Assembly: GCA_934149515.1 (NCBI GenBank)
Contig: CAKPFD010000003.1
Coordinates: forward strand, 8,228-72,227
Direction of reading: 5' to 3'
Length of the DNA stretch: 64,000 nt
Source of the DNA: an uncultured Bacilli bacterium
Lineage (GTDB): Bacteria; Bacillota_I; Bacilli_A; RF39; UBA660
A program made the translations under genes and the position numbers. The notes beneath the pieces were generated by a model. The model searched no databases. It was given only the letters and a program-made list of their open reading frames with translations, and had not been told where the DNA came from. Shown here one piece after another: positions 4,932-64,000 of this stretch (position 1 is its first letter; each line of letters starts with the position of its first letter).

Positions 4932-5711
4932 ATGGAAATTGTAATTGTTGCTGTTATCCTCTTTTTTGTTTTAATTTATAATAAAACAATTGATGAGCGA
5001 CGTTTTATTCAAGATAACCGTCATTATTTTGAAATTTTACGAGAAGATGATTATAACTTTTTAGTATATGCAAAATATGGAGAAGATGCAAAACCAGATG
5101 TTTTGTTCCAAAAACGCATTTCTTATGGAATTGTCATTATGTTTGTTTTCATGTTTTTATTTCTAGATTCCCTTAATCTTTTGAATATCGTCTTAGCGTT
5201 TTTAATTGGTTTTTTGGTATTTAAAATGCCTTATCAAACGTTAAAAAAATACTATAAACAACATTTGCATGAAATTGATATTATGCTACCATACTATTTA
5301 AAGAGTTTAGAAATATTGATTCAGCATTATACAGTACCAGTTGCCATTGGTAAAAGTATTGAAGATGCACCAGATATTTTTAAACCTGGGTTAAGAGAAT
5401 TGATTGAAAAAGTTAATTCAGGTGATAGTAGTATTACACCATATATGGATTTTGCTAATCAATATCCCGTAAGAGATTCTATGCGAATGATGCGTTTATT
5501 GTATCGTTTAGGAATTGGCGGTCAAGAAAAGAAACAAGAAAGATTGTTGATGTTTTCTAAAACAGTTTCTAATTTGCAAGCGAAAGCTCGTGAAACAAAA
5601 TACAAAGAGCGTCTTTCTAAGATGGAATCACAAACACTTATCATGCTTGTTGTCACTGGTATTTGTGTCATGGTTATTATCTTGACATCTATGTTTACAA
5701 TGCTTGGTTGA
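4932..5711 (+). CDS. tadC: TadC-like inner membrane pilus assembly protein
   Basis: N-terminal TM, internal TMs, C-terminal TM. Paralogous in architecture to the preceding gene, in the position of tadC. Confidence 0.5.
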   Translation: MEIVIVAVILFFVLIYNKTIDERRFIQDNRHYFEILREDDYNFLVYAKYGEDAKPDVLFQKRISYGIVIMFVFMFLFLDSLNLLNIVLAFLIGFLVFKMPYQTLKKYYKQHLHEIDIMLPYYLKSLEILIQHYTVPVAIGKSIEDAPDIFKPGLRELIEKVNSGDSSITPYMDFANQYPVRDSMRMMRLLYRLGIGGQEKKQERLLMFSKTVSNLQAKARETKYKERLSKMESQTLIMLVVTGICVMVIILTSMFTMLG

Positions 5712-5794
5712 CATTAAATGTGAATTCGTTGGTTACAAATGATTATTTATCTGTTATAATAAAGTTAGAAAATAGGAAGGAGAATAAATAGAAT

Positions 5795-6025
5795 ATGAAA
5801 GAAGCGACTGGAGAGTTAAATATGACAGTTATTACCATTTTATTGATAGGAGCAGTTTTAACTTTTGCTTGGATATTATGGGATAAGGTAAAAGCCAAAA
5901 TTGAAAATCAATGGGATAATGTCGATAAAGTTAACAGCGAACAAAAAGGTCAGTGGGGTAAAACTGGTTATCATTATACAGATGATCATTCTATTGAATA
6001 TGCTGGTTATATAATGAATTGGTAG
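5795..6025 (+). CDS. Small membrane protein, candidate Flp-type pilin (non-canonical)
   Basis: 76 aa with a short polar leader ending in Gly (MKEATG/ELN...), then a hydrophobic helix. Lacks the canonical G/XXXXEY motif. Confidence 0.3.
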   Translation: MKEATGELNMTVITILLIGAVLTFAWILWDKVKAKIENQWDNVDKVNSEQKGQWGKTGYHYTDDHSIEYAGYIMNW

Positions 6026-6042
6026 TAAAGGGAGTGGAATAG

Positions 6043-6510
6043 ATGAGAGATGCTTTTGGTAGTTTAATATCGATACAAGTTATATTGGCGTTTGTTTTGC
6101 TAATCAATGGCTATTTAGCGTACTCTGTTAATTATACAAGAGCATTTCGCGTCAAAAATGGAATTATCAATATTATTGAACAATATGAGGGACATACAGA
6201 AGCAGCAAAAGATAAAATTTCCACTTATACCGATGATATGAAGTATCATGTTCCTGCTGAAATGATGAATACAGAATCATTAAGAGATTATGAATGCATT
6301 CAAACAGAAGGTTATTGTATTAAAAAAACAGCAGTAGCAGCTACCGATCCAACAAGTGATGGTTATCGTGGAGCATATTATAGTGTGGTAACATTTGTTA
6401 ATATTGATATACCTGTATTGAATAAATTTATTCGACTTGGTAGTTTCTTACAAGTAAAAGGAGAAACAAAAACAATTTATAGTACTGGTACAGATAGTGA
6501 ATTAGAATAA
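6043..6510 (+). CDS. TadE-like pseudopilin candidate
   Basis: N-terminal MRDAFGSLISIQVILAFVLL resembles the TadE/TadF N-terminal hydrophobic segment after a Gly. 155 aa. Confidence 0.35.
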   Translation: MRDAFGSLISIQVILAFVLLINGYLAYSVNYTRAFRVKNGIINIIEQYEGHTEAAKDKISTYTDDMKYHVPAEMMNTESLRDYECIQTEGYCIKKTAVAATDPTSDGYRGAYYSVVTFVNIDIPVLNKFIRLGSFLQVKGETKTIYSTGTDSELE

Positions 6511-6531: not shown

Positions 6532-7509
6532 ATGAATGTCATTATTGCAAATGAAGCAAAAGATATGTTAGCACAACTTGATATTGATGTTATCAAAAGT
6601 ATTACTGGTGTGCATAGTGCAGATGAAATTGTTAATATGTTTAAAAACTTCTTTTATGCAAGAATGATTTTGGATGTAACAGCAATTGAAGATTATGATA
6701 ATATTACAAATATTCAAAAAATATCTATTGGCTTAGATGCGGATAAAATTATTTTAGTATTACCAAATAATGAAATGTCAACATCTAGTGGTTATTTATC
6801 TAAATTGATATCTATGGGTATTTATAACTTTACGACAAATCTTGAAGGTGTAAAGTATTGTCTTTCGCATCCGAATACTTATAAAGATGTTGCACATATT
6901 CAACAATTAAATGATCTATCTAGTACTATTAATGAAAAAGCAGTTGGTGGTTCTAGAATTATTGGTATTAAAAACATTACTGATCATGCAGGTAGTACAA
7001 CACTTATTTATATGCTAAAAAAAGAATTAGAACAGACTTATGGAATGAGTGTTGTTGCCATTGAAATTAATCGTCATGACTTTATGTATTTTAATGATAA
7101 AAATATGATTTCTGTTACGAATGAAGAATTGATGGCTGAAATTGTAAAACATAAAGATGCTAGTATTATTTTGATTGATTTGAATGATTCAGATAATGAT
7201 GGTGTATGTTCTGATGTTTTATATTTATTAGAACCATCTAGTCTTAAATTGAATAAATTAATGCGAAGAAACCGGAAGGTTTTTGAAGAATTGAAAGGGA
7301 AAAAGATCGTGTTAAATCAAAGTTTATTGACAAGTCATGATGTCATGGATTTTGAATATGAAGGAAAGACAAAAGTATTTTATAATTTACCACCTTTAAA
7401 TGATCGAGTAAAAAATCCTAGTTTAAGTGATTTTTTAGTTAAACTTGGCCTTTTGAATAAGACTGAAGAAAAAGAAGAAGGAAAGATTTTTGGTTTGTTT
7501 AAACGTTAA
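6532..7509 (+). CDS. TadZ/CpaE-like protein (receiver-like N domain + degenerate ParA/MinD-like ATPase domain)
   Basis: N-terminal receiver-like fold pattern, then a central degenerate P-loop GIKNITDHAGSTT. Position in the tad locus. Confidence 0.4.
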   Translation: MNVIIANEAKDMLAQLDIDVIKSITGVHSADEIVNMFKNFFYARMILDVTAIEDYDNITNIQKISIGLDADKIILVLPNNEMSTSSGYLSKLISMGIYNFTTNLEGVKYCLSHPNTYKDVAHIQQLNDLSSTINEKAVGGSRIIGIKNITDHAGSTTLIYMLKKELEQTYGMSVVAIEINRHDFMYFNDKNMISVTNEELMAEIVKHKDASIILIDLNDSDNDGVCSDVLYLLEPSSLKLNKLMRRNRKVFEELKGKKIVLNQSLLTSHDVMDFEYEGKTKVFYNLPPLNDRVKNPSLSDFLVKLGLLNKTEEKEEGKIFGLFKR

Positions 7510-7568
7510 AATATTGACAAATTGGAAAAATTTTTATATGATGTTAGTAGTGAAGGAGAGTATGTGAT

Positions 7569-7925
7569 ATGAAACTTTTAAATTTTATGCAGTTAGCAGA
7601 AGAAACGGTTGATATTGATCCAAATTGTCAGGGGTTAGGCTTCATTGTTAAAATTGTTAAGCATGGGATTTTTCCGATTTTGCAAATTGGTATTCCTATT
7701 ATATTAATTGTATTAGGCACGCTTGATTTAGGTAAAGCAGTTATTTCCTCAGATGAAAAAGAAGTAAAAGCAGCACAAAGTAGATTGATGAAAAGATGTA
7801 TTTATGCAGTAGCCGTTTTCTTTATTGTTACTATTGTTCAGTTAGTGTTTAATTTAATTAATAATGTGGCTGCAAGCAATGCTGGTGATTTGACTGGTTG
7901 GTGGACATGCTGGTCAAATATTTAG
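7569..7925 (+). CDS. VirB2/TrbC-like T4SS pilin candidate (two-TM hairpin)
   Basis: 118 aa with two TM helices separated by a charged loop DLGKAVISSDEKEVKAAQSRLMKR. Paralogous to the C-terminus of the 10743-11858 protein. Confidence 0.45.
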   Translation: MKLLNFMQLAEETVDIDPNCQGLGFIVKIVKHGIFPILQIGIPIILIVLGTLDLGKAVISSDEKEVKAAQSRLMKRCIYAVAVFFIVTIVQLVFNLINNVAASNAGDLTGWWTCWSNI

Positions 7926-7948
7926 TTAGTAAATATTAAAGGTAATCG

Positions 7949-7975
7949 TTAGGGAGACTTATAAGAGTCTTCTTT
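7949..7975 (+). terminator. Weak hairpin (AGACT-N6-AGTCT) plus T-tract, candidate terminator after the VirB2-like gene
   Basis: Inverted repeat followed by TCTTTTATT, read directly from the sequence. Confidence 0.3.
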
Positions 7976-8559
7976 TATTATGTCCTGGATAGGAATATAA
8001 TAAAAATTATCGCTGGTGCGGGTGAGAGTTGAAAAAACGATGGTGAAAGTTCTTTATCTCATACACGATGGAATTGCCAATATCACATAATCTTTACTCT
8101 AAAATATTGAAGGAAAGTAATATATAAAAAATTACGCCGTGATATTGGAATATATTTAAGAAGACTATGTGATTATAAGAAAGTTGAGATAATAGAAGTA
8201 CAAGCATGTTCAGACTCTATATACACGTGTTAGAGTAAAATAGGTGTATCATCATTTATGGGATATTTAAAAAAATTTGTTGATGATTTTCGAACGTTAA
8301 TGAATAATCTTTCTTGTTTTTTATTATGATATTTGGTATGATATGTTCTAAGGTGGAAGAAGGTGAAATGTTATGGAAGATATTATAAATGTTTCTTTAA
8401 TAATAAATCAAATTAGTCACCATAATGAATCAACGCTTGTTAACATAAAGCTAACAGGTGGGTATTTATTTAACATAACAAAAATGTATCTATAAAATGA
8501 GCAGGATAAAACTATCTTGTATTTTTTGGTTATATAAAATTAAGTAAAGGAGAAACGAA

Positions 8560-10494
8560 ATGGGAATTCAATCTAGTATAGCTGCTGGTATGAAAATTGG
8601 TTTAGAAGCAACAAGAGATAGTGGAAATTTATCAAATATTCAAGTTGATGCTGTCAATAAAGCAATTTCTGATTTGGAAAGTGCTAATTTTTCTAATCAA
8701 AATGATTCACAAAGTGTAAATGTTGAAGAACTTGATTTGAATTTAAACAATTCTGTTCAAGAATTTAAAACTGAAAAACAAACATTATCAAACGAACAGT
8801 ACGATCAAGTTATTTCATCATATACCACTCAATATGATGAAACACTTGAACAACTCGATATTGTATTAAAAGCAAGACAAGAAGAATTAGATGATTTACA
8901 AAAACTAGCAATTGATACAGATACAGTAGAAGCAGAAAGAACAGTAACAGAAGAAAATAATGATGCTGATGCTCAAGTTATTAACATGATTGTTAGTGAT
9001 ATGGATGCATGTCCTGAAGAACGTCTGAAACAATTAGGAATTACACAAGATGAATTTCAGAATTATGATTTAGAACAATTAAAAGAACTTTATAAAAAGA
9101 AAATTCCATCTGTGCAGGAATTATATGGAATTGCAGGTAAAGATGTTAATGAAAAGTTAAGGGAAAATTCGGAATTTGTAAATTATGAAGAATATAAAGT
9201 AGCAAAAGAAGAAGCAGAAAATGATGTTGCTGCAATAAAAGAAGCAATTAAGAGATTAAAGATTCAAAAAGAGCAATTACAATATGATTTATTACCATCA
9301 TTAGATGATTATCAAAATTTTGAAGTAACAACTGTAGAAATAAAAGAAGAAAATGTTTTTGATTGTTTGGATACGGATTCTGGTAGTCCATATATTGATT
9401 ATGATAAGTATTGTGCAAAGTATGGTGCTATCGATGAATTAACTTTTTTAAGCGAAATGAAAGAGAAATATCCTCAATATGAAGTACGAGGATTAAAGCA
9501 TCAAGAGATATTAGAGAATATGCTTAAAGTTAGTGATGAAGATGAAAATTTACTTAAAATTTACCAATATTTGTATGCAAAAGAAGGAAAAGAAGCAGCA
9601 TATCAATATGTAGAAGATATAGAAGATCATACCAATCAATTATTAGGGAAGAAAAAAGCTGAAGAATTTTTAAGTACATTAGATGAGAATGATGCTGATT
9701 TAGAGGCTAAAATATTTAATCATTTAAAGACGAGTGGAAAAGGATTGATGGATGGGGTTGAGAGTTTTGGTGAAGGAATAAAGAATATATTTACCTCATC
9801 TGATGTTTATAGTGCAAATGAATATGAAGCGATGTTTATAGCAGAAGCCTTACAAGAAAAGGGATATGGTTTAGATTTTAACTATAATGTAAGTAAAGAA
9901 ATTGGTAGAGTTACTCCTAGTATTGCGCTTAGTACGATATGTTCTCCATTAGGAGCATCTACTGCTAGTACTATTTCTTCTGTTAGTTTAGGTTTATCTT
10001 CAACAGGAAATAGTTATCATAATGCTTTAATTGAAGGATATGAGCCATGGAGAGCAGCACTTTATGGTATTGCTTCTGGTACTAGTAGTGCTTGTTTATC
10101 AAAACTTGGAAGTTTACCTGGAATTTCAATGACAGATGAATCTGCTTCTTTACTTGTAAAAATGGTTAAAGAAGGTGGACAGTCTGCGGCTCAAAGAGTT
10201 TTAACAAATGGTTTTTATAATTCTATTATTTTAGGAAAGACGATTGATTTAACAGGACTTTCCGAACAAGCTATTCAATCATTTATTGTAGCATCACTTG
10301 CTTCTGGTGCTATCAATAAAATTAATGATATTGATGTTAGTATTGATGGAGAAATTGTTCATCTTAGTCTTTCTGCTATTAAAAGAGTTATAAAGGCTTC
10401 TTCTGGTGTTGCTAGTAAATCATCTAGTTTCTTGACAGAGTTACTTTCTACTTCAAGGAGTGGTGGCCATGTCGATTATGGTAGAAATAGATAG
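8560..10494 (+). CDS. Acidic coiled-coil protein of unknown function, first gene of the T4SS module
   Basis: Strong RBS AAGGAGAAA. 644 aa, no signal peptide. E/D/K-rich N-terminal two thirds, S/G/A-rich C-terminus. Confidence 0.5.
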   Translation: MGIQSSIAAGMKIGLEATRDSGNLSNIQVDAVNKAISDLESANFSNQNDSQSVNVEELDLNLNNSVQEFKTEKQTLSNEQYDQVISSYTTQYDETLEQLDIVLKARQEELDDLQKLAIDTDTVEAERTVTEENNDADAQVINMIVSDMDACPEERLKQLGITQDEFQNYDLEQLKELYKKKIPSVQELYGIAGKDVNEKLRENSEFVNYEEYKVAKEEAENDVAAIKEAIKRLKIQKEQLQYDLLPSLDDYQNFEVTTVEIKEENVFDCLDTDSGSPYIDYDKYCAKYGAIDELTFLSEMKEKYPQYEVRGLKHQEILENMLKVSDEDENLLKIYQYLYAKEGKEAAYQYVEDIEDHTNQLLGKKKAEEFLSTLDENDADLEAKIFNHLKTSGKGLMDGVESFGEGIKNIFTSSDVYSANEYEAMFIAEALQEKGYGLDFNYNVSKEIGRVTPSIALSTICSPLGASTASTISSVSLGLSSTGNSYHNALIEGYEPWRAALYGIASGTSSACLSKLGSLPGISMTDESASLLVKMVKEGGQSAAQRVLTNGFYNSIILGKTIDLTGLSEQAIQSFIVASLASGAINKINDIDVSIDGEIVHLSLSAIKRVIKASSGVASKSSSFLTELLSTSRSGGHVDYGRNR

Positions 10495-60476: not shown

Positions 60477-61397
60477 TTGAGGTTTGTGATGAATAGTAAT
60501 TATTTAGAAAAAACATTATTAAATTTATATCAAATGGGTGAAGATGGCTTGTTTTATCAAAAGTATGGAAAAGTTTATATGCAATTGCTAAAGCAAGGAA
60601 TAGATAAAAAGATTCAGTTTGGACCTTTATTACCTTTTTCAAAAGAAGAAACCCATCAACTAGTTTGTTCTTTTTTAGAAAAGTATGACTTTTTACAAGA
60701 ACAAAATTTTACTTATCATTTACAAGATAATATTCAACTTTATACGAAAGAAGAATTGGATGCTTTTTTAAATTTAGAAAAAAATATACCTAATATGACA
60801 TTTGGTGAGGCAAAATCTTTAGAAAAGGTTAGGGGTAACTTATTATACTTTAATGATGAATATTGGAATTTACATGTTTATCATACAGAAACTTTGTCTA
60901 GTGCTAATACGCTTGTTCATGAATGGATTCATAAGCTGGATGCACCTGATATTGATTTTTTTGATGATGGTTTTTATGATATGCTATCAGAAGTAAAAGC
61001 TTATTATGGTTCGTTTTTGTTCCTTGATGATTGTAAGCAACAAGGTTATTTATCGGACAGTACGATTGTAAGTGATCAGATACGATCTATACTTTCTAGA
61101 CAAATTTTATCTTATCAACAATCTTTAGAATCTCTATCTTGCTTACAAGGCTATCAACAAGATCAAAAATTGGAACAATTGCAGCAAAATGAAAGTTTTG
61201 CCCTTGATGATTATCCACATATTTTAGGGTATTTACTAGCTAGTTATTATTATCAAAATCAAAAGGATCATAAAAAGGCTTCTTTTCTTGAAAAAAGTTT
61301 ATATCAAGATGCTTTTTTAAAAACAAAAGTACATCATTTATTGAAATCTCATGGAAAAAATAAAATAAAACAATTGGTAAAATCGTTTTATACATAG
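60477..61397 (+). CDS. Hypothetical protein with HExxH motif (putative zinc metallopeptidase)
   Basis: TLVHEWIHKLD. No TM helices. Confidence 0.4.
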   Translation: MRFVMNSNYLEKTLLNLYQMGEDGLFYQKYGKVYMQLLKQGIDKKIQFGPLLPFSKEETHQLVCSFLEKYDFLQEQNFTYHLQDNIQLYTKEELDAFLNLEKNIPNMTFGEAKSLEKVRGNLLYFNDEYWNLHVYHTETLSSANTLVHEWIHKLDAPDIDFFDDGFYDMLSEVKAYYGSFLFLDDCKQQGYLSDSTIVSDQIRSILSRQILSYQQSLESLSCLQGYQQDQKLEQLQQNESFALDDYPHILGYLLASYYYQNQKDHKKASFLEKSLYQDAFLKTKVHHLLKSHGKNKIKQLVKSFYT

Positions 61398-61418: not shown

Positions 61419-62129
61419 ATGAAAAAGAAGGCTTTTATTGGTTTGTTCATCATTGTTGCATTGACTTTTATAGGGGTCGGTTATTATTTTTATCCAAAGA
61501 GTGTAGAAGAAAAAGAACATTTACAAAAAACAACTGTTACAAAGCAGTATGAAGATGTCAGTAGTGTTGATAATGAAGAAAATATTGTTCAGTTATATCA
61601 AGAAAAATTTTCTAATCCTGATATTATCGGACAGCTTTCTATTCCTAATACAGATTTAGTTGTTCCAGTAGCACAAGCAAGTGATAATTCTTATTATTTA
61701 GATCATTTACTTGATAAAAGTCAAAATAGTTTAGGTAGTGTTTATCTTGATTATCGGAATCAAGTCACTGATAGAAAATTAATTATTTATGGTCATAATT
61801 CTTTAAAATATAAAACAGAATTTCATCTTTTAGAAAACTATTTAAATCAATCTTATTATGATCAACATAAAGACATTTATTTTCAAACTTTAAATGATAG
61901 TTATCATTATCAAATTTTTTCAGTTTATATTGCTACTAAAGATTATCAACACGTAAATTTGTTATTTGATAATACAACGTACCAAAAACATTTAGATTGG
62001 ATGAAGCAACAATCTATTTATGATACAAAAATTAAAGTATCTTATCAAGATGATATTTTAGTATTACAAACTTGTGATATGAAGCAAGATAATGCCTACA
62101 TTATAGTGGTTGCGAAAAAGGTAGCTTAG
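61419..62129 (+). CDS. srtB: Class B sortase
   Basis: N-terminal TM, LIIYGHN His motif and the catalytic LVLQTCD. Confidence 0.75.
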   Translation: MKKKAFIGLFIIVALTFIGVGYYFYPKSVEEKEHLQKTTVTKQYEDVSSVDNEENIVQLYQEKFSNPDIIGQLSIPNTDLVVPVAQASDNSYYLDHLLDKSQNSLGSVYLDYRNQVTDRKLIIYGHNSLKYKTEFHLLENYLNQSYYDQHKDIYFQTLNDSYHYQIFSVYIATKDYQHVNLLFDNTTYQKHLDWMKQQSIYDTKIKVSYQDDILVLQTCDMKQDNAYIIVVAKKVA

Positions 62130-62207
62130 TGTTATGATATTGTCATAAAGATAAAAGGTAGGTGTTAGACATGAAAGTATTCTCTATAGTAAACCTAAAG
62201 TTAACCT

Positions 62208-62216
62208 GGGGGGGGG
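62208..62216. repeat. G9 homopolymeric tract
   Basis: Nine consecutive G in a ~30% GC genome, ~100 bp upstream of the surface-protein gene. Confidence 0.9.
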
Positions 62217-62258
62217 TACTTTAATCAAACACTTTATCTTTTACCATGTCAAAAACAT

Positions 62259-62286
62259 CAGAATATAAATGTATTCTGGTTTTTTG
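62259..62286 (+). terminator. Rho-independent terminator/attenuator in the leader of the surface protein gene
   Basis: CAGAATA-TAAATG-TATTCTG followed by GTTTTTTGG. Confidence 0.6.
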
Positions 62287-62314
62287 GTGTTTTAAAATAG
62301 AAAAGGAGTAAGAT

Positions 62315-64000
62315 ATGAAAAAATTAAAAGAGAATAAGGAAAAAATCTTTATGGTGGTTTCAATTATCGTATTGTTTGTAGCAGTTATTGGTATCAGCTA
62401 TGCAGCTTTTTCTTATACAAGAGTAGGAGAAAATCTAAATAGTATTACCACAGGGGTTATCTCTATGAGCTATGAAGAAAGTAGCAATATCATATCAATA
62501 GATAAAGCCTTACCAACAACAGATGCAACAGGTAAAGTTCGTCTAAAAGAAGGAGAGTATTTTGATTTCACTGTTTCAACAACCATTAAGGGAACAACAT
62601 CCGTTAATTATGAAATCGCAGCAGAAGACTTTTCTAGTAATACTTTTGATGGAAAGAATATTCGTTTGTATTTAACAAAGCTAAATACCGATGGAAGTGA
62701 AACAGAAGTGATGGCACCAAAGAATTTCTTAAAAAGTCCAAGTGAGAATAAAGCAACAGGAAGACCAGCAAACATGATGAGCTTAGCAAGTGGGACAATC
62801 AGTGCAAGTGAAAGTAACAAATACCGTTTAAGAATGTATGTAGATGAAAGGTATAATCCACAAGGAGATGGAGGGAACAAAACATTTTCGATTCGTATAA
62901 ATGTTTATGGAAAAGTCTATGAAGGACCAGTAGGAAGCAGACTGAAAGCTTATGAAAATGGAACATCAACTGATTTTCATACAGATGATTATAGAGCTAA
63001 AACAACTTCCATTGTAACAAAGAAAGATAATAGTGTACCAGAAACAGTAATAGAAAGTTGGGATGTATCCAAAGCTGGAGATGGATCCATTATGGCTTAT
63101 TCTGAAAGTGATGGAAATGATGGATATAAGATCACTATAGGAGGGCAAGATGGAATTGTACCAGAATCATTAGAAAGATATTTTGAAAAATTTACAGTAG
63201 TAACTTCAATAGATTTATCAGCATTTGATACTTCAGAAACAACTAGTATGGAATACATTTTTAATTATTGTAGTAAATTGATAAATTTAAATATAAGCTC
63301 TTTTAATACTTCCAAAGTAACAAGTATGAGAACGATGTTCCAAAAGTGTGAAAGTTTAACAAAATTAGATTTGAGTCATTTTGATACTTCTAGAGTAACA
63401 GATATGGCAGGCATGTTTATGTATTGTACTAACTTGCAAAATCTAGATGTCAGTAATTTTGATACTACTAAAGTGATTAATATGTATGCAATGTTTTCTA
63501 ATTGCAGTAATTTGTCAACTATGGGTGTAAGTAACTTTAACACATCAAATGTAACAAACATGTCTTATATGTTTAATCAGTGTAAAAATTTATTAAGTTT
63601 AGATGTTAGAAAATTTGATACTTCTAAGGTGACTGATATGTCCGGTATGTTTAACTATTGTGAAAACTTATCAAATTTAGATGTAAGTAATTTTAATACA
63701 TCAAACGTAACAAACATGGTGGCAATGTTTCAAAGATGTTATAATTTAACAAGCTTAGATGTTAGCCACTTTGACACATCTAAAGTAACAAAGATGAATG
63801 GAATGTTTAATCATTGTGAAAATTTATCGAATTTAGATGTAAGTCATTTTGATACATCCAAGGTAACAAATATGAAAACGATGTTTCAATGTTGTTATAA
63901 ACTAACGAGCTTGAATGTAACTAATTTTGATACTTCAAAAGTGACAGATATGGGGTGGATGTTTTTCGGATGTATAGGTTTAACTTCTTTAAATGTTAAT
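62315..64000 (+). CDS. Surface protein with 26-residue repeats (DUF285-like), 3'-truncated by the window
   Basis: RBS AAAAGGAG, N-terminal TM/signal. At least 8 tandem 26-aa repeats LDVSxFDTSKVTxMxxMFxxCxNLxx. The frame is open to position 64000. Confidence 0.7.
   Translation, partial: MKKLKENKEKIFMVVSIIVLFVAVIGISYAAFSYTRVGENLNSITTGVISMSYEESSNIISIDKALPTTDATGKVRLKEGEYFDFTVSTTIKGTTSVNYEIAAEDFSSNTFDGKNIRLYLTKLNTDGSETEVMAPKNFLKSPSENKATGRPANMMSLASGTISASESNKYRLRMYVDERYNPQGDGGNKTFSIRINVYGKVYEGPVGSRLKAYENGTSTDFHTDDYRAKTTSIVTKKDNSVPETVIESWDVSKAGDGSIMAYSESDGNDGYKITIGGQDGIVPESLERYFEKFTVVTSIDLSAFDTSETTSMEYIFNYCSKLINLNISSFNTSKVTSMRTMFQKCESLTKLDLSHFDTSRVTDMAGMFMYCTNLQNLDVSNFDTTKVINMYAMFSNCSNLSTMGVSNFNTSNVTNMSYMFNQCKNLLSLDVRKFDTSKVTDMSGMFNYCENLSNLDVSNFNTSNVTNMVAMFQRCYNLTSLDVSHFDTSKVTKMNGMFNHCENLSNLDVSHFDTSKVTNMKTMFQCCYKLTSLNVTNFDTSKVTDMGWMFFGCIGLTSLNVN

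Follow-up and report, generated by a model that had tools for sequence, protein, structure and literature searches.

A poly-G tract inside a predicted leader ORF as a candidate leader-peptide attenuator of a surface-protein gene family in uncultured gut Bacilli

We analysed a stretch of 64,000 nucleotides from an uncultured Bacilli bacterium (hereafter the window), in which a run of nine G residues (G9) lies between a class-B-like sortase gene and a surface-protein gene that runs off the window. The features of this region, including those predicted from folding, are as follows.

61419-62129: class-B-like sortase gene, separated from the surface-protein gene by a 185-nt spacer.
62110..62138, + strand: predicted promoter-like site, with −35 TTGCGA (62110-62115), a 17-nt spacer and an extended −10 TGtTATGAT (62130-62138).
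62152..62166, + strand: 5' strand of a predicted long-range helix (P1), including the Shine-Dalgarno (SD) sequence of the leader ORF (MFE and centroid structures).
62155..62164, + strand: SD of the leader ORF (AAGGTAGGTG), read from the sequence, 6 nt before the ATG.
62171..62224, + strand: leader ORF (uORF) in its G9 reading, MKVFSIVNLKLTWGGVL followed by the stop; 17 codons, ATG at 62171, TAA at 62222-62224.
62208..62216, + strand: G9 homopolymer, a candidate slipped-strand tract, in uORF codons 13-16 (W-G-G-V) and preceded by the conserved GTTAACCT.
62228..62243, + strand: pyrimidine 'anti-SD-like' box (AACACTTTATCTTTTA), the 3' strand of P1 by folding.
62257..62285, + strand: intrinsic-terminator-like hairpin, with stem 62257-62266/62271-62280, loop 62267-62270 and T6 at 62280-62285.
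62266..62268, + strand: TAA stop of the G7/G10 uORF frame (ending in WGGGTLIKHFIFYHVKNIRI), at the top of the hairpin 5' arm.
62298..62300, + strand: TAG stop of the G8/G11 uORF frame (ending in WGGYFNQTLYLLPCQKHQNINVFWFFGVLK), beyond the terminator, abutting the main SD and 14 nt before the main ATG.
62301..62308, + strand: SD of the surface-protein gene (AAAAGGAG), read from the sequence and conserved in the leader alignment.
62315..64000, + strand, running off the window: surface-protein gene, putatively regulated by the leader, ATG at 62315-62317.

The surface protein carries PARCEL/DUF285 repeats of 26 residues and has a full length of 640 aa in L001. Its N-terminus carries a hydrophobic helix with a ..SYAAFSYT.. 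motif, followed by a conserved N-domain for which structure prediction returned a beta-sandwich at medium confidence, with weak lectin/CBM-like matches. Inspection of the C-terminus revealed neither a sorting signal nor an LPXTG-like end, and the protein was rejected as a sortase substrate on this ground. An earlier sequence-only reading of this DNA had placed the tract between a sortase B gene and the gene for a surface protein, and that arrangement is confirmed; the adjacency of the two genes is incidental, however, since the surface protein lacks a C-terminal sorting signal and homologues with the same leader occur in other contexts.

The same reading had called a nine-G tract statistically unusual, and the composition of the window agrees: G9 is its sole G or C run of at least 6, against 0.009 such runs expected under an iid model at the window's composition, and the next-longest G/C runs are five G5, with no C5. 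In 387 kb of related loci, each of the 50 G/C runs of at least 7 (50/50) is at the leader site, and homologous leaders from unrelated contigs have a G run at the corresponding position.

In promoter-spacer phase variation, as exemplified by Neisseria porA/opc and Bordetella fim, a tract lies between −35 and −10 or otherwise alters promoter geometry. This type of switch was rejected for the window: the first G lies 70 nt past the predicted −10, within an ORF, and the promoter scan called no + strand promoter-like site flanking it. The predicted promoter has 10 of 12 consensus matches plus the TG and overlaps the end of the sortase gene; its equivalent in homologous leaders (TTGAAT-17/18-TGnTAGAAT) lies ~20 nt upstream of the uORF SD. 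A transcription start downstream of the tract had been named as evidence that would speak against phase variation; the predicted promoter is upstream. The uORF start is preceded by an AGGTGA- or AAGGT-type SD in all groups of homologous leaders, and the uORF itself has a homologue in all leaders, marked by the motif ..L(K/Q)x(V/L)(T/N)(W/M)GGG... The G run is inside this short, translated-looking leader ORF and not in a promoter spacer.

In the G9 frame, the uORF of the window stops 5 nt past the run and 32 nt before the base of the hairpin. Judging from the CTTTT(T)A(T/C)CATG box common to them, the G7/G10 frame corresponds by homology to the long frame conserved in the other groups (..FYH..). 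The G8 frame was considered as the window's conserved long frame and rejected on the same evidence; it is an additional, longer open frame, and its state is observed in alleles L003 and L005. Two of the three frames of the window thereby reach the terminator, unlike in other groups.

The same layout of promoter, uORF, G run, pyrimidine box, terminator and SD is found elsewhere ahead of homologous genes for N-domain surface proteins. A scan of species-representative genomes with the sortase, from which the window's species was absent, gave a best identity of 35% and revealed two MAGs with this layout (L031 and L048, sortase ~30% identical to that of the window); the layout was also found in ENA contigs and in 80 human-gut contigs, with at least 8 paralogues in one sample at ~30x coverage. 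Flanking genes differ among genomes that share run, uORF, box and hairpin, and leaders are at least 98% identical where coding regions are 80-92% identical. Across 53 poly-G leaders, runs of G6-G10 occupy the same place, and in all 53 one post-run frame is long (13-27 codons) while the others have 0-6 codons, the exception being the intermediate frame of the window with 16 codons. One post-run frame is open in every leader until a stop in or after the hairpin, and in every non-window group this long-frame stop lies in the hairpin 5' arm. Short-frame stop codons start 1-15 nt after the run, with the hairpin base at +38 to +55, and these stops fall ~27-34 nt or more before the hairpin.

Leaders that depart from this pattern were also found. 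Mixed bases stand in place of the run in 12 distinct, locked leaders, and every one of these has the long frame fixed, an outcome with a chance of ~(1/3)^12 if they are independent. Among natural leader variants, one has lost the T-run (L127) and another the hairpin (L148). In the P0093 group, the structural gene of one poly-G locus carries a frameshift. Look-ups of P0081, P0114 and P0103 matched leaderless paralogues; the P0081 leaderless spacer is identical in 10 assemblies and makes a useful negative control.

Length heterogeneity between strains, which the sequence-only reading had suggested looking for, is present at the window's own locus: assembly consensuses, on which all run-length comparisons here are based, give G9 in one lineage of the species (6 assemblies), and G8 (twice) and G8A in the other. 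Consensus run lengths differ in 15 of 18 leader pairs whose 260-nt flanks differ at 3-5 sites and in none of the 18 pairs with identical flanks (0/18). The run is invariant within a lineage, as illustrated by the 6 assemblies with G9 and by 7 assemblies of another locus with G7. The 37 consensus frame states (10 long, 27 short) fit an expectation of 1/3 (p = 0.49). Errors could account for some of the run-length differences where contigs have low coverage or come from long reads. To find more alleles, the metagenome collection was scanned with a DNA pattern anchored in the flanks, which gave 0 matches, and a search for orthologous alleles through neighbouring proteins returned only further G9 copies. 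The allelic lengths, the G6-G10 range of the family and the position kept in divergent genomes lend comparative support to the earlier proposal of a slipped-strand phase-variation element.

The sequence-only reading had also seen a terminator before the RBS, at 62259-62286, and a hairpin with T6 is indeed found at 62257-62285, 30 nt before the main ATG, though it is weak (10 pairs, of which 2 are G-C and 2 G-U; dG −8.5 kcal/mol). The consensus terminator scan of the window did not call it, because the scan requires 3 G-C pairs and the hairpin has 2. The hairpins of homologous leaders range from −7 to −14 kcal/mol and are directly followed by T runs, and two SNPs in the hairpin of the second lineage preserve pairing. 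The whole leader of the window folds with z = −3.17, and 0 of 200 shuffles fold as well. For P1, the duplex z averages −3.5 across groups, an equivalent duplex occurs in divergent groups, and a few compensatory differences separate the groups. Covariation in the large paralogue group was no better than in shuffles (98.5% of cells paired, one compensatory pair only) because the sequences are too similar, and P1 therefore rests on folding energies and the few between-group compensations. RNAalifold on a cross-group MAFFT alignment gave only 9 box:main-SD pairs and missed both P1 and the terminator, the alignment columns being disrupted by indels. When the leader was checked for a trp-type antiterminator, in which a conserved 2:3 pairing competes with the terminator, P1 could be equated with a 1:2-like helix, and pairing of the box with the hairpin arm was possible on paper; consensus folding did not return the box:arm pairing. 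A known RNA family or riboswitch was rejected, as Rfam 15 held no match to the window region better than E = 3 and none at E <=0.1 for six homologous loci.

Taken together, these observations lead us to interpret the region as a leader-peptide attenuator set by the length of the poly-G tract, a reading to which we assign a probability of roughly 0.6. Transcription would start at the promoter overlapping the sortase stop, and a ribosome would load on the strong SD of the short leader ORF that contains the G run. With G9, the uORF would stop early, the hairpin and U-run would form, and most transcripts would end before the surface-protein gene (OFF or low). Slipped-strand mispairing during replication would add or remove one G and the uORF would read on: with G10 or G7 it would stop at the codon in the top of the hairpin, and with G8 or G11 it would read through the whole terminator to the stop abutting the main SD. 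A ribosome that is translating or terminating there would then block hairpin formation and may also free the main SD, so that the gene would be expressed (ON). P1 would pair the leader SD and start region with the anti-SD-like pyrimidine box downstream of the run, probably limiting leader translation to the first, co-transcriptional ribosome and thus keeping the default state OFF. The window allele, G9, is predicted to be in the OFF or low state, and we infer that the long frame is ON and that the G tract switches heritably and at high frequency. Against frequent switching stand the invariance of the run within a lineage and the 0/18 pairs with identical flanks, and against the model more broadly the weakness of the window hairpin, a promoter and transcription start that are predicted, and the two window frames that reach the terminator. 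The terminator is likely the effector of the switch, because the run length decides whether the uORF stops well before the hairpin or in/after it. The earlier suggestion that the terminator provides an additional attenuation control is thus retained as far as its involvement goes, but rather than additional it would be the effector itself.

The same anatomy might instead control translation. Here the box or an extended hairpin would mask the main SD, and translation of the uORF in the long frame would unmask it, or ribosomes would re-initiate after 62298-62300; run length would still set ON or OFF. Pairing of the box with the main SD is what the cross-group consensus folding returned, the MFE structures of L031 and L048 extend the terminator stem and include the same pairing, and the window's G8-frame stop abuts the main SD, 14 nt from the ATG. 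Moreover, transcription-translation coupling is often weak or loose in Bacillota, which would favour a translational over a transcriptional effect. We nonetheless consider translational control unlikely, since a U-run follows immediately upon the hairpin in every leader, which is the signature of an intrinsic terminator, and since in most groups 42-66 nt separate the long-frame stop from the main ATG, a distance too great for re-initiation. The loss of the T-run in L127 and of the hairpin in L148 also suggests that the terminator is the element that was disabled.

Polymerase slippage or ribosomal frameshifting on GGGGGGGGG would act at the RNA level without heritable switching, by placing a fixed fraction of ribosomes in the long frame and giving constant low expression. 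Transcriptional slippage is efficient at the length of the RNA-DNA hybrid, which runs of 9-10 match, and the stability of tract length within lineages would fit such a mechanism. However, each of the three frames is represented among alleles and paralogues, and no offset relative to the long frame is favoured. Runs of 6-8 are also common, the locked leaders retain the long frame although they have no run, and slippage is best documented for A/T runs, all of which make this explanation a distinctly poor candidate. Slippage could make the OFF state leaky.

It is very improbable that the tract is neutral or decaying, that is, a mutational accident or assembly artefact in a uORF remnant, with the hairpin serving as the sortase terminator and the surface-protein gene having its own promoter downstream of the hairpin. 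A −10-like TAAAAT (62293-62298) between hairpin and SD, the match of consensus states to the neutral 1/3 expectation and the poly-G locus of the P0093 group with its frameshifted structural gene would be compatible with neutrality, but not the retention of run, uORF, box and hairpin amid different flanking genes, leaders more conserved than coding regions, the 12/12 locked leaders in frame, the absence of poly-G elsewhere in the 387 kb of related loci, or the recurrence of the same run lengths in independent assemblies. Equally hard to credit is the notion that the G run is a base-pairing target whose length tunes pairing to a C/U-rich small RNA or to the UUCUCU stretch of the uORF rather than frame, for although the MFE structures of the window and L086 pair the run with the uORF C/U stretch and RepG/tlpB of Helicobacter pylori offers a precedent (PMC8295292), the run is unpaired or apical in other groups, locked variants keep the frame and not the G content, the window has no C run of at least 5, and the geometry of stop codons relative to the hairpin would be left unexplained.

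The attenuator reading has a precedent in S. gallolyticus pil1/pil3, where GCAGA repeats in a leader-peptide gene precede a terminator and the frame of the leader changes with the number of repeats (Danne et al. 2014, PMC3894217). A leader stop at least 28 nt before the hairpin leads to low expression and one in or after the hairpin to high expression, through ribosome occlusion (PMC3894217). Akin to pil1/pil3, the window has a predicted promoter, a leader ORF with a simple repeat, a terminator-like hairpin and a gene for a surface structure, a change in the number of repeat units alters the reading frame because the unit length is not divisible by 3, and the host is a gut-associated Gram-positive. 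The stop geometry is likewise shared and holds in all groups, with the window stops 32 nt before the hairpin base for G9, in the hairpin for G10 and after it for G8. The systems differ in that (i) the tract is a mononucleotide run of G6-G10 instead of 13-23 GCAGA units; (ii) the leaders lack sequence homology, and ours, known from sequence alone, has the predicted P1 and the anti-SD-like box; (iii) the element fronts a multigene family that has many paralogues in each genome, among them copies locked in the long frame without a run and copies with no leader; and (iv) the genes are not sortase-assembled pilins. We read the window element as a homopolymer version of the pil1/pil3 switch.

Classical poly-G/C contingency loci, as in Neisseria, Campylobacter, Helicobacter and Haemophilus, have their tract in the structural gene or in a promoter spacer. 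They share with the window a G/C tract of ~8-10 in a tract-poor genome, surface proteins, length polymorphism among strains and a three-frame ON/OFF logic, whereas the tract studied here lies in a separate upstream ORF and would act through a terminator. The H. pylori tlpB leader carries a variable G repeat that is untranslated and serves as the binding site of the small RNA RepG, with graded, length-dependent expression (PMC8295292). Both mRNA leaders, each ahead of a surface or chemotaxis gene, contain a homopolymeric G repeat of variable length, but the run in our leader is coding, frame-dependent and coupled to a terminator. Ribosome-mediated transcription attenuation governs the E. coli trp and pyrBI leaders. 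It exists in Bacilli as well, in B. subtilis bmrCD (PMC4191407). As in these three leaders, ribosome position on the leader ORF would decide whether the terminator hairpin forms; they sense charged tRNA, UTP or antibiotics, whereas the input to the poly-G leader would be a heritable frameshift. Clostridioides difficile cwpV is controlled by an invertible switch whose OFF orientation places an intrinsic terminator in the leader. It resembles the proposed switch in being a phase-variable surface protein of a Gram-positive gut bacterium with a terminator-based OFF state, but it relies on site-specific DNA inversion, with no repeat tract and no leader peptide.

On balance, we lean towards regarding the poly-G leader, with its promoter, SD-sequestering helix, G-tract uORF, anti-SD box and terminator, as an undescribed conserved class of cis-regulatory RNA that precedes the genes of a large modular surface-protein family in uncultured, low-GC Bacilli of the human gut. 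Several independently switching copies per genome, beside locked-ON and leaderless ones, would generate combinatorial heritable surface variation by the leader-peptide/attenuation mechanism, for which S. gallolyticus has so far provided the sole demonstration.

Repeat-tract phase variation has been described mainly in pathogens, and, to our knowledge, a single case of leader-peptide-plus-terminator phase variation has been studied experimentally. If our interpretation is correct, this mechanism would be a general solution and not a curiosity, because the switch fronts a multigene surface-protein family in abundant uncultured Bacilli of the human gut. It would also provide a signature for predicting ON/OFF states from metagenomes, namely a G run in a uORF and the position of the stop relative to the hairpin, and poly-G length calls in such leaders would be biological information that is flattened by assemblers. 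Finally, it would flag a family of candidate adhesins or lectin-like proteins under pressure from host or phage.

The nine-G tract that the sequence-only reading had singled out as unusual for low-GC DNA is exceptional by count as well: at a G+C content of 30.3%, 0.009 G or C runs of six or more are expected in the window under an iid model, and G9 at 62208-62216 is the sole such run, the runners-up being five G5 tracts. At related loci (387 kb), 50/50 G/C runs of at least seven fall at the leader site. The tract does lie, as that reading had it, in the gap of 185 nt between the sortase and surface-protein genes, and the terminator hairpin placed behind it was found again. The features concerned are:

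61419-62129, plus strand: class-B-like sortase gene (TIGR03064 142 bits, slightly below cut-off; Pfam Sortase)
62110-62138, plus strand: predicted promoter-like site with extended -10 (TTGCGA, 17 nt, TGtTATGAT), overlapping the sortase stop
62155-64, plus strand: leader SD AAGGTAGGTG, sixteen bases past the promoter-like site
62171, plus strand: ATG, after the leader SD, of a small leader ORF (uORF) that encloses the G run
62257-66/62271-80, plus strand: stem of the terminator-like hairpin (loop 62267-70; T6 at 62280-85; dG -8.5 kcal/mol)
62315, plus strand: ATG of the surface-protein gene (main gene), with 26-residue PARCEL/DUF285 repeats (TIGR02167, E = 8e-117)

Since its stem is A+U-rich and a consensus terminator scan needs three G-C pairs, the hairpin was not listed by that scan. 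Immediately 5' of the sortase gene, an ORF of 302-306 aa (60477-61397) without a Pfam or NCBIfam match accompanies the locus in all assemblies of the species.

Where the uORF ends depends on the number of Gs. With nine it is MKVFSIVNLKLTWGGVL and stops at 62222-24, the hairpin lying 32 nt further on; with ten or seven it becomes ..WGGGTLIKHFIFYHVKNIRI and stops at a TAA (62266-68) at the top of the hairpin 5' arm; with eight or eleven it is open past the entire terminator, to a TAG (62298-62300) that abuts the main SD. In S. gallolyticus pil1/pil3, GCAGA repeats within a leader-peptide gene shift the frame: a leader stop at least 28 nt before the terminator leads to low expression, and a stop within or after the hairpin to high expression, the ribosome preventing hairpin formation (PMC3894217). 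Bacillus, too, uses ribosome-mediated transcription attenuation (PMC4191407). Because the geometry of leader stop and terminator in the window, judged from sequence alone, matches that of pil1/pil3, we propose that the element is a homopolymer version of this switch, with a run of G in place of the GCAGA units. The sequences establish the element's anatomy and its conservation; we infer the switching and its direction. An allele with G9 would have the gene OFF or low and one with G10/G7 or G8/G11 would have it ON, slipped-strand mispairing being the proposed source of run-length changes. The main alternative is a purely translational read-out of the uORF frame; RNA-level slippage and RepG-like targeting of the G run by a small RNA (PMC8295292) are less likely.

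The leader of this candidate homopolymer switch recurs at other loci. Used as a protein query, the N-terminal 205 residues of the surface protein returned 420 relatives; the homologues inspected on long contigs among these results carried the leader, and a scan of the metagenome collection gave 80 further loci, from human gut. In class A upstream regions, a G6-G10 run precedes the main ATG by 113-138 nt, or by about 204 nt in one group; in class B a leader of the same type has its run deleted or swapped for mixed bases; class C is without leader, the gene standing directly behind another gene or having a different promoter. Classes A and B share a predicted promoter (TTGAAT-17/18-TGnTAGAAT), a 5' end rich in AAAGAUAAGG followed by a strong SD, a uORF reading ..L(Q/K)x(V/L)(T/N)(W/M)GGG over the run, which GTTAAC(C/A)T precedes, a pyrimidine box (ACUU(C/U)UUUUAUC, like the 3' end of 16S rRNA) and a hairpin with a U-run ahead of the main SD. 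The leader matches no Rfam family, and we found no paper describing the element. GTTAAC (or GTTACC/ATTAAC) directly 5' of the run (window 62200-62207) is kept in all groups, with codons for the peptide motif L(K/Q)x(V/L)(T/N) at that site; neither frame logic nor the predicted helices explain this conservation. Seven leaders (L097, L102, L117, L120, L129, L138 and L163) show at most 5 differences over 260 nt, and the first 900 nt of coding sequence behind them are just 80-92% identical, which suggests leader gene conversion or a leader constrained more than the protein.

In 53/53 poly-G leaders exactly one post-run frame is open for 13-27 codons (the long frame); the remaining two close after 0-6 codons, an exception is the intermediate frame of the window, open for 16 codons. 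In every non-window group, the long-frame stop falls in the hairpin 5' arm (at the hairpin base in L086; the stop-versus-hairpin scan made no hairpin call in L031), and the window's G8 frame ends beyond the hairpin. Short-frame stop codons start 1-15 nt past the run, and the hairpin base lies 38-55 nt past it. The 12 distinct class B leaders, which come from two or more divergent groups, are without exception locked in the long frame, one of them having GGGTGGAGG where G9 would stand; as this is very unlikely by chance, it argues that full-length leader translation is the selected, functional state, and a neutral tract is a less likely explanation. Two long-frame class B leaders, L127 (about 1460-1480; T-run lost) and L148 (about 1440-1470; whole hairpin lost), resemble naturally occurring terminator deletions.

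Long-frame leader peptides end in ..FFNYRIRAG-stop in L048 (8180-8232) and ..FFNHRIRTG-stop in L031 (8445-8492). These ends resemble the SecM arrest motif GIRAG(P); this may be coincidence, or may reflect ribosome stalling at a stop codon within the hairpin.

Contigs with an identical sortase, from several human-gut metagenomes including Hadza samples, show heterogeneity in tract length between lineages: the window locus falls into two, one with G9 in six independent assemblies, the other with G8 twice and G8A once, together with a one-base upstream deletion and two hairpin SNPs by which the pairing is left intact. Neighbouring genes include serS, miaB, ylbF-like, cotE-like, rpsP, a KH-domain gene, cdsA and rseP. 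Among 185,579 species-representative genomes the species has no entry, the best sortase identity there being 35%; two distant MAGs from that scan, Candidatus Onthousia faecavium (L031) and an uncultured Bacilli bin (L048), have G10 in the same arrangement ahead of a protein with the same N-terminus. Among non-redundant poly-G leaders with an assignable upstream frame, 10/37 consensus sequences are in the long frame, no departure from one third (p = 0.49). Run length differed in 0/18 pairs with identical 260-nt flanks, 2/17 with 1-2 flank differences and 15/18 with 3-5; the tract therefore changes about two orders of magnitude faster than any one site. Some run lengths from low-coverage or long-read contigs may be errors. 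For comparison, the spacer of one leaderless paralogue is the same in all ten assemblies that carry it. The majority run-length state is stable within a lineage, and such sequence comparisons show evolutionary lability, not a switching rate. At the locus of the relative P0093 (L089 4600-4680; also L088, L090-L096), a break behind the N-domain divides the structural gene into a 215-aa ORF and, in another frame, a 336-aa ORF, near CACAAAAATAT; the 215-aa product is identical in 9/9 assemblies (L088-L096), and the short-frame leader run is G7 in seven Illumina assemblies and G8 in two long-read assemblies. P0093 is possibly a paralogue that decays in the OFF state.

The window leader folds better than 200/200 dinucleotide shuffles (z = -3.17). 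The dominant predicted feature is a long-range helix, P1, pairing the 5' UTR and SD (62152-66) with the box (62228-43); in its upper part, uORF codons 2-5 would pair with the last six Gs and TACTTT. Each divergent group has a predicted counterpart of this SD-to-box duplex (-12 to -29 kcal/mol; mean z-score -3.5 against shuffled partners), with compensatory differences between groups (GAUUAGUA:UACUAAUU versus GUUUAGUA:UACUAAAC; GUGUU:AACAC versus GUGAU:AUCAC); the large paralogue group is too uniform in sequence to support covariation statistics. Cross-group RNAalifold retained only box:main-SD pairs, so that, taken with the P1 folds, the box could pair with either SD. P1, a predicted and not a proven helix, would hold the default OFF state and restrict uORF initiation to a co-transcriptional window.

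The surface protein itself (window 62315-64000; L001, a full-length copy, 6897-8819) combines a hydrophobic N-terminal helix with a conserved beta-sandwich domain, and its AlphaFold model (pLDDT 71) gave only weak lectin/CBM-like PDB matches (TM 0.34 or below). The family, with P0001-P0120 among the relatives, shares this helix, a ..SYAAFSY.. motif and the beta-sandwich domain, and its C-terminal modules vary, from PARCEL/DUF285 repeats in the window protein to another module in L031, L048 and L086. Since the surface protein has no C-terminal sorting signal and its homologues are not adjacent to sortases, the sortase adjacency is incidental. Clusters at 90% identity include many truncated members (66-506 aa). 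Transposase genes (IS110 family, Mu-like rve, Transposase_mut) beside some members (L087, on a 1.39-Mb contig, 5089-6249; L088 1139-2425, 5754-7779) would fit mobility or rearrangement of the loci. At least 8 paralogue contigs, at 25-33x coverage, come from one sample. The surface protein belongs to a large modular family; pil1/pil3 is the one experimentally dissected case that we found with the geometry of its leader, which is arguably a homopolymer variant of a pil1/pil3-type switch.
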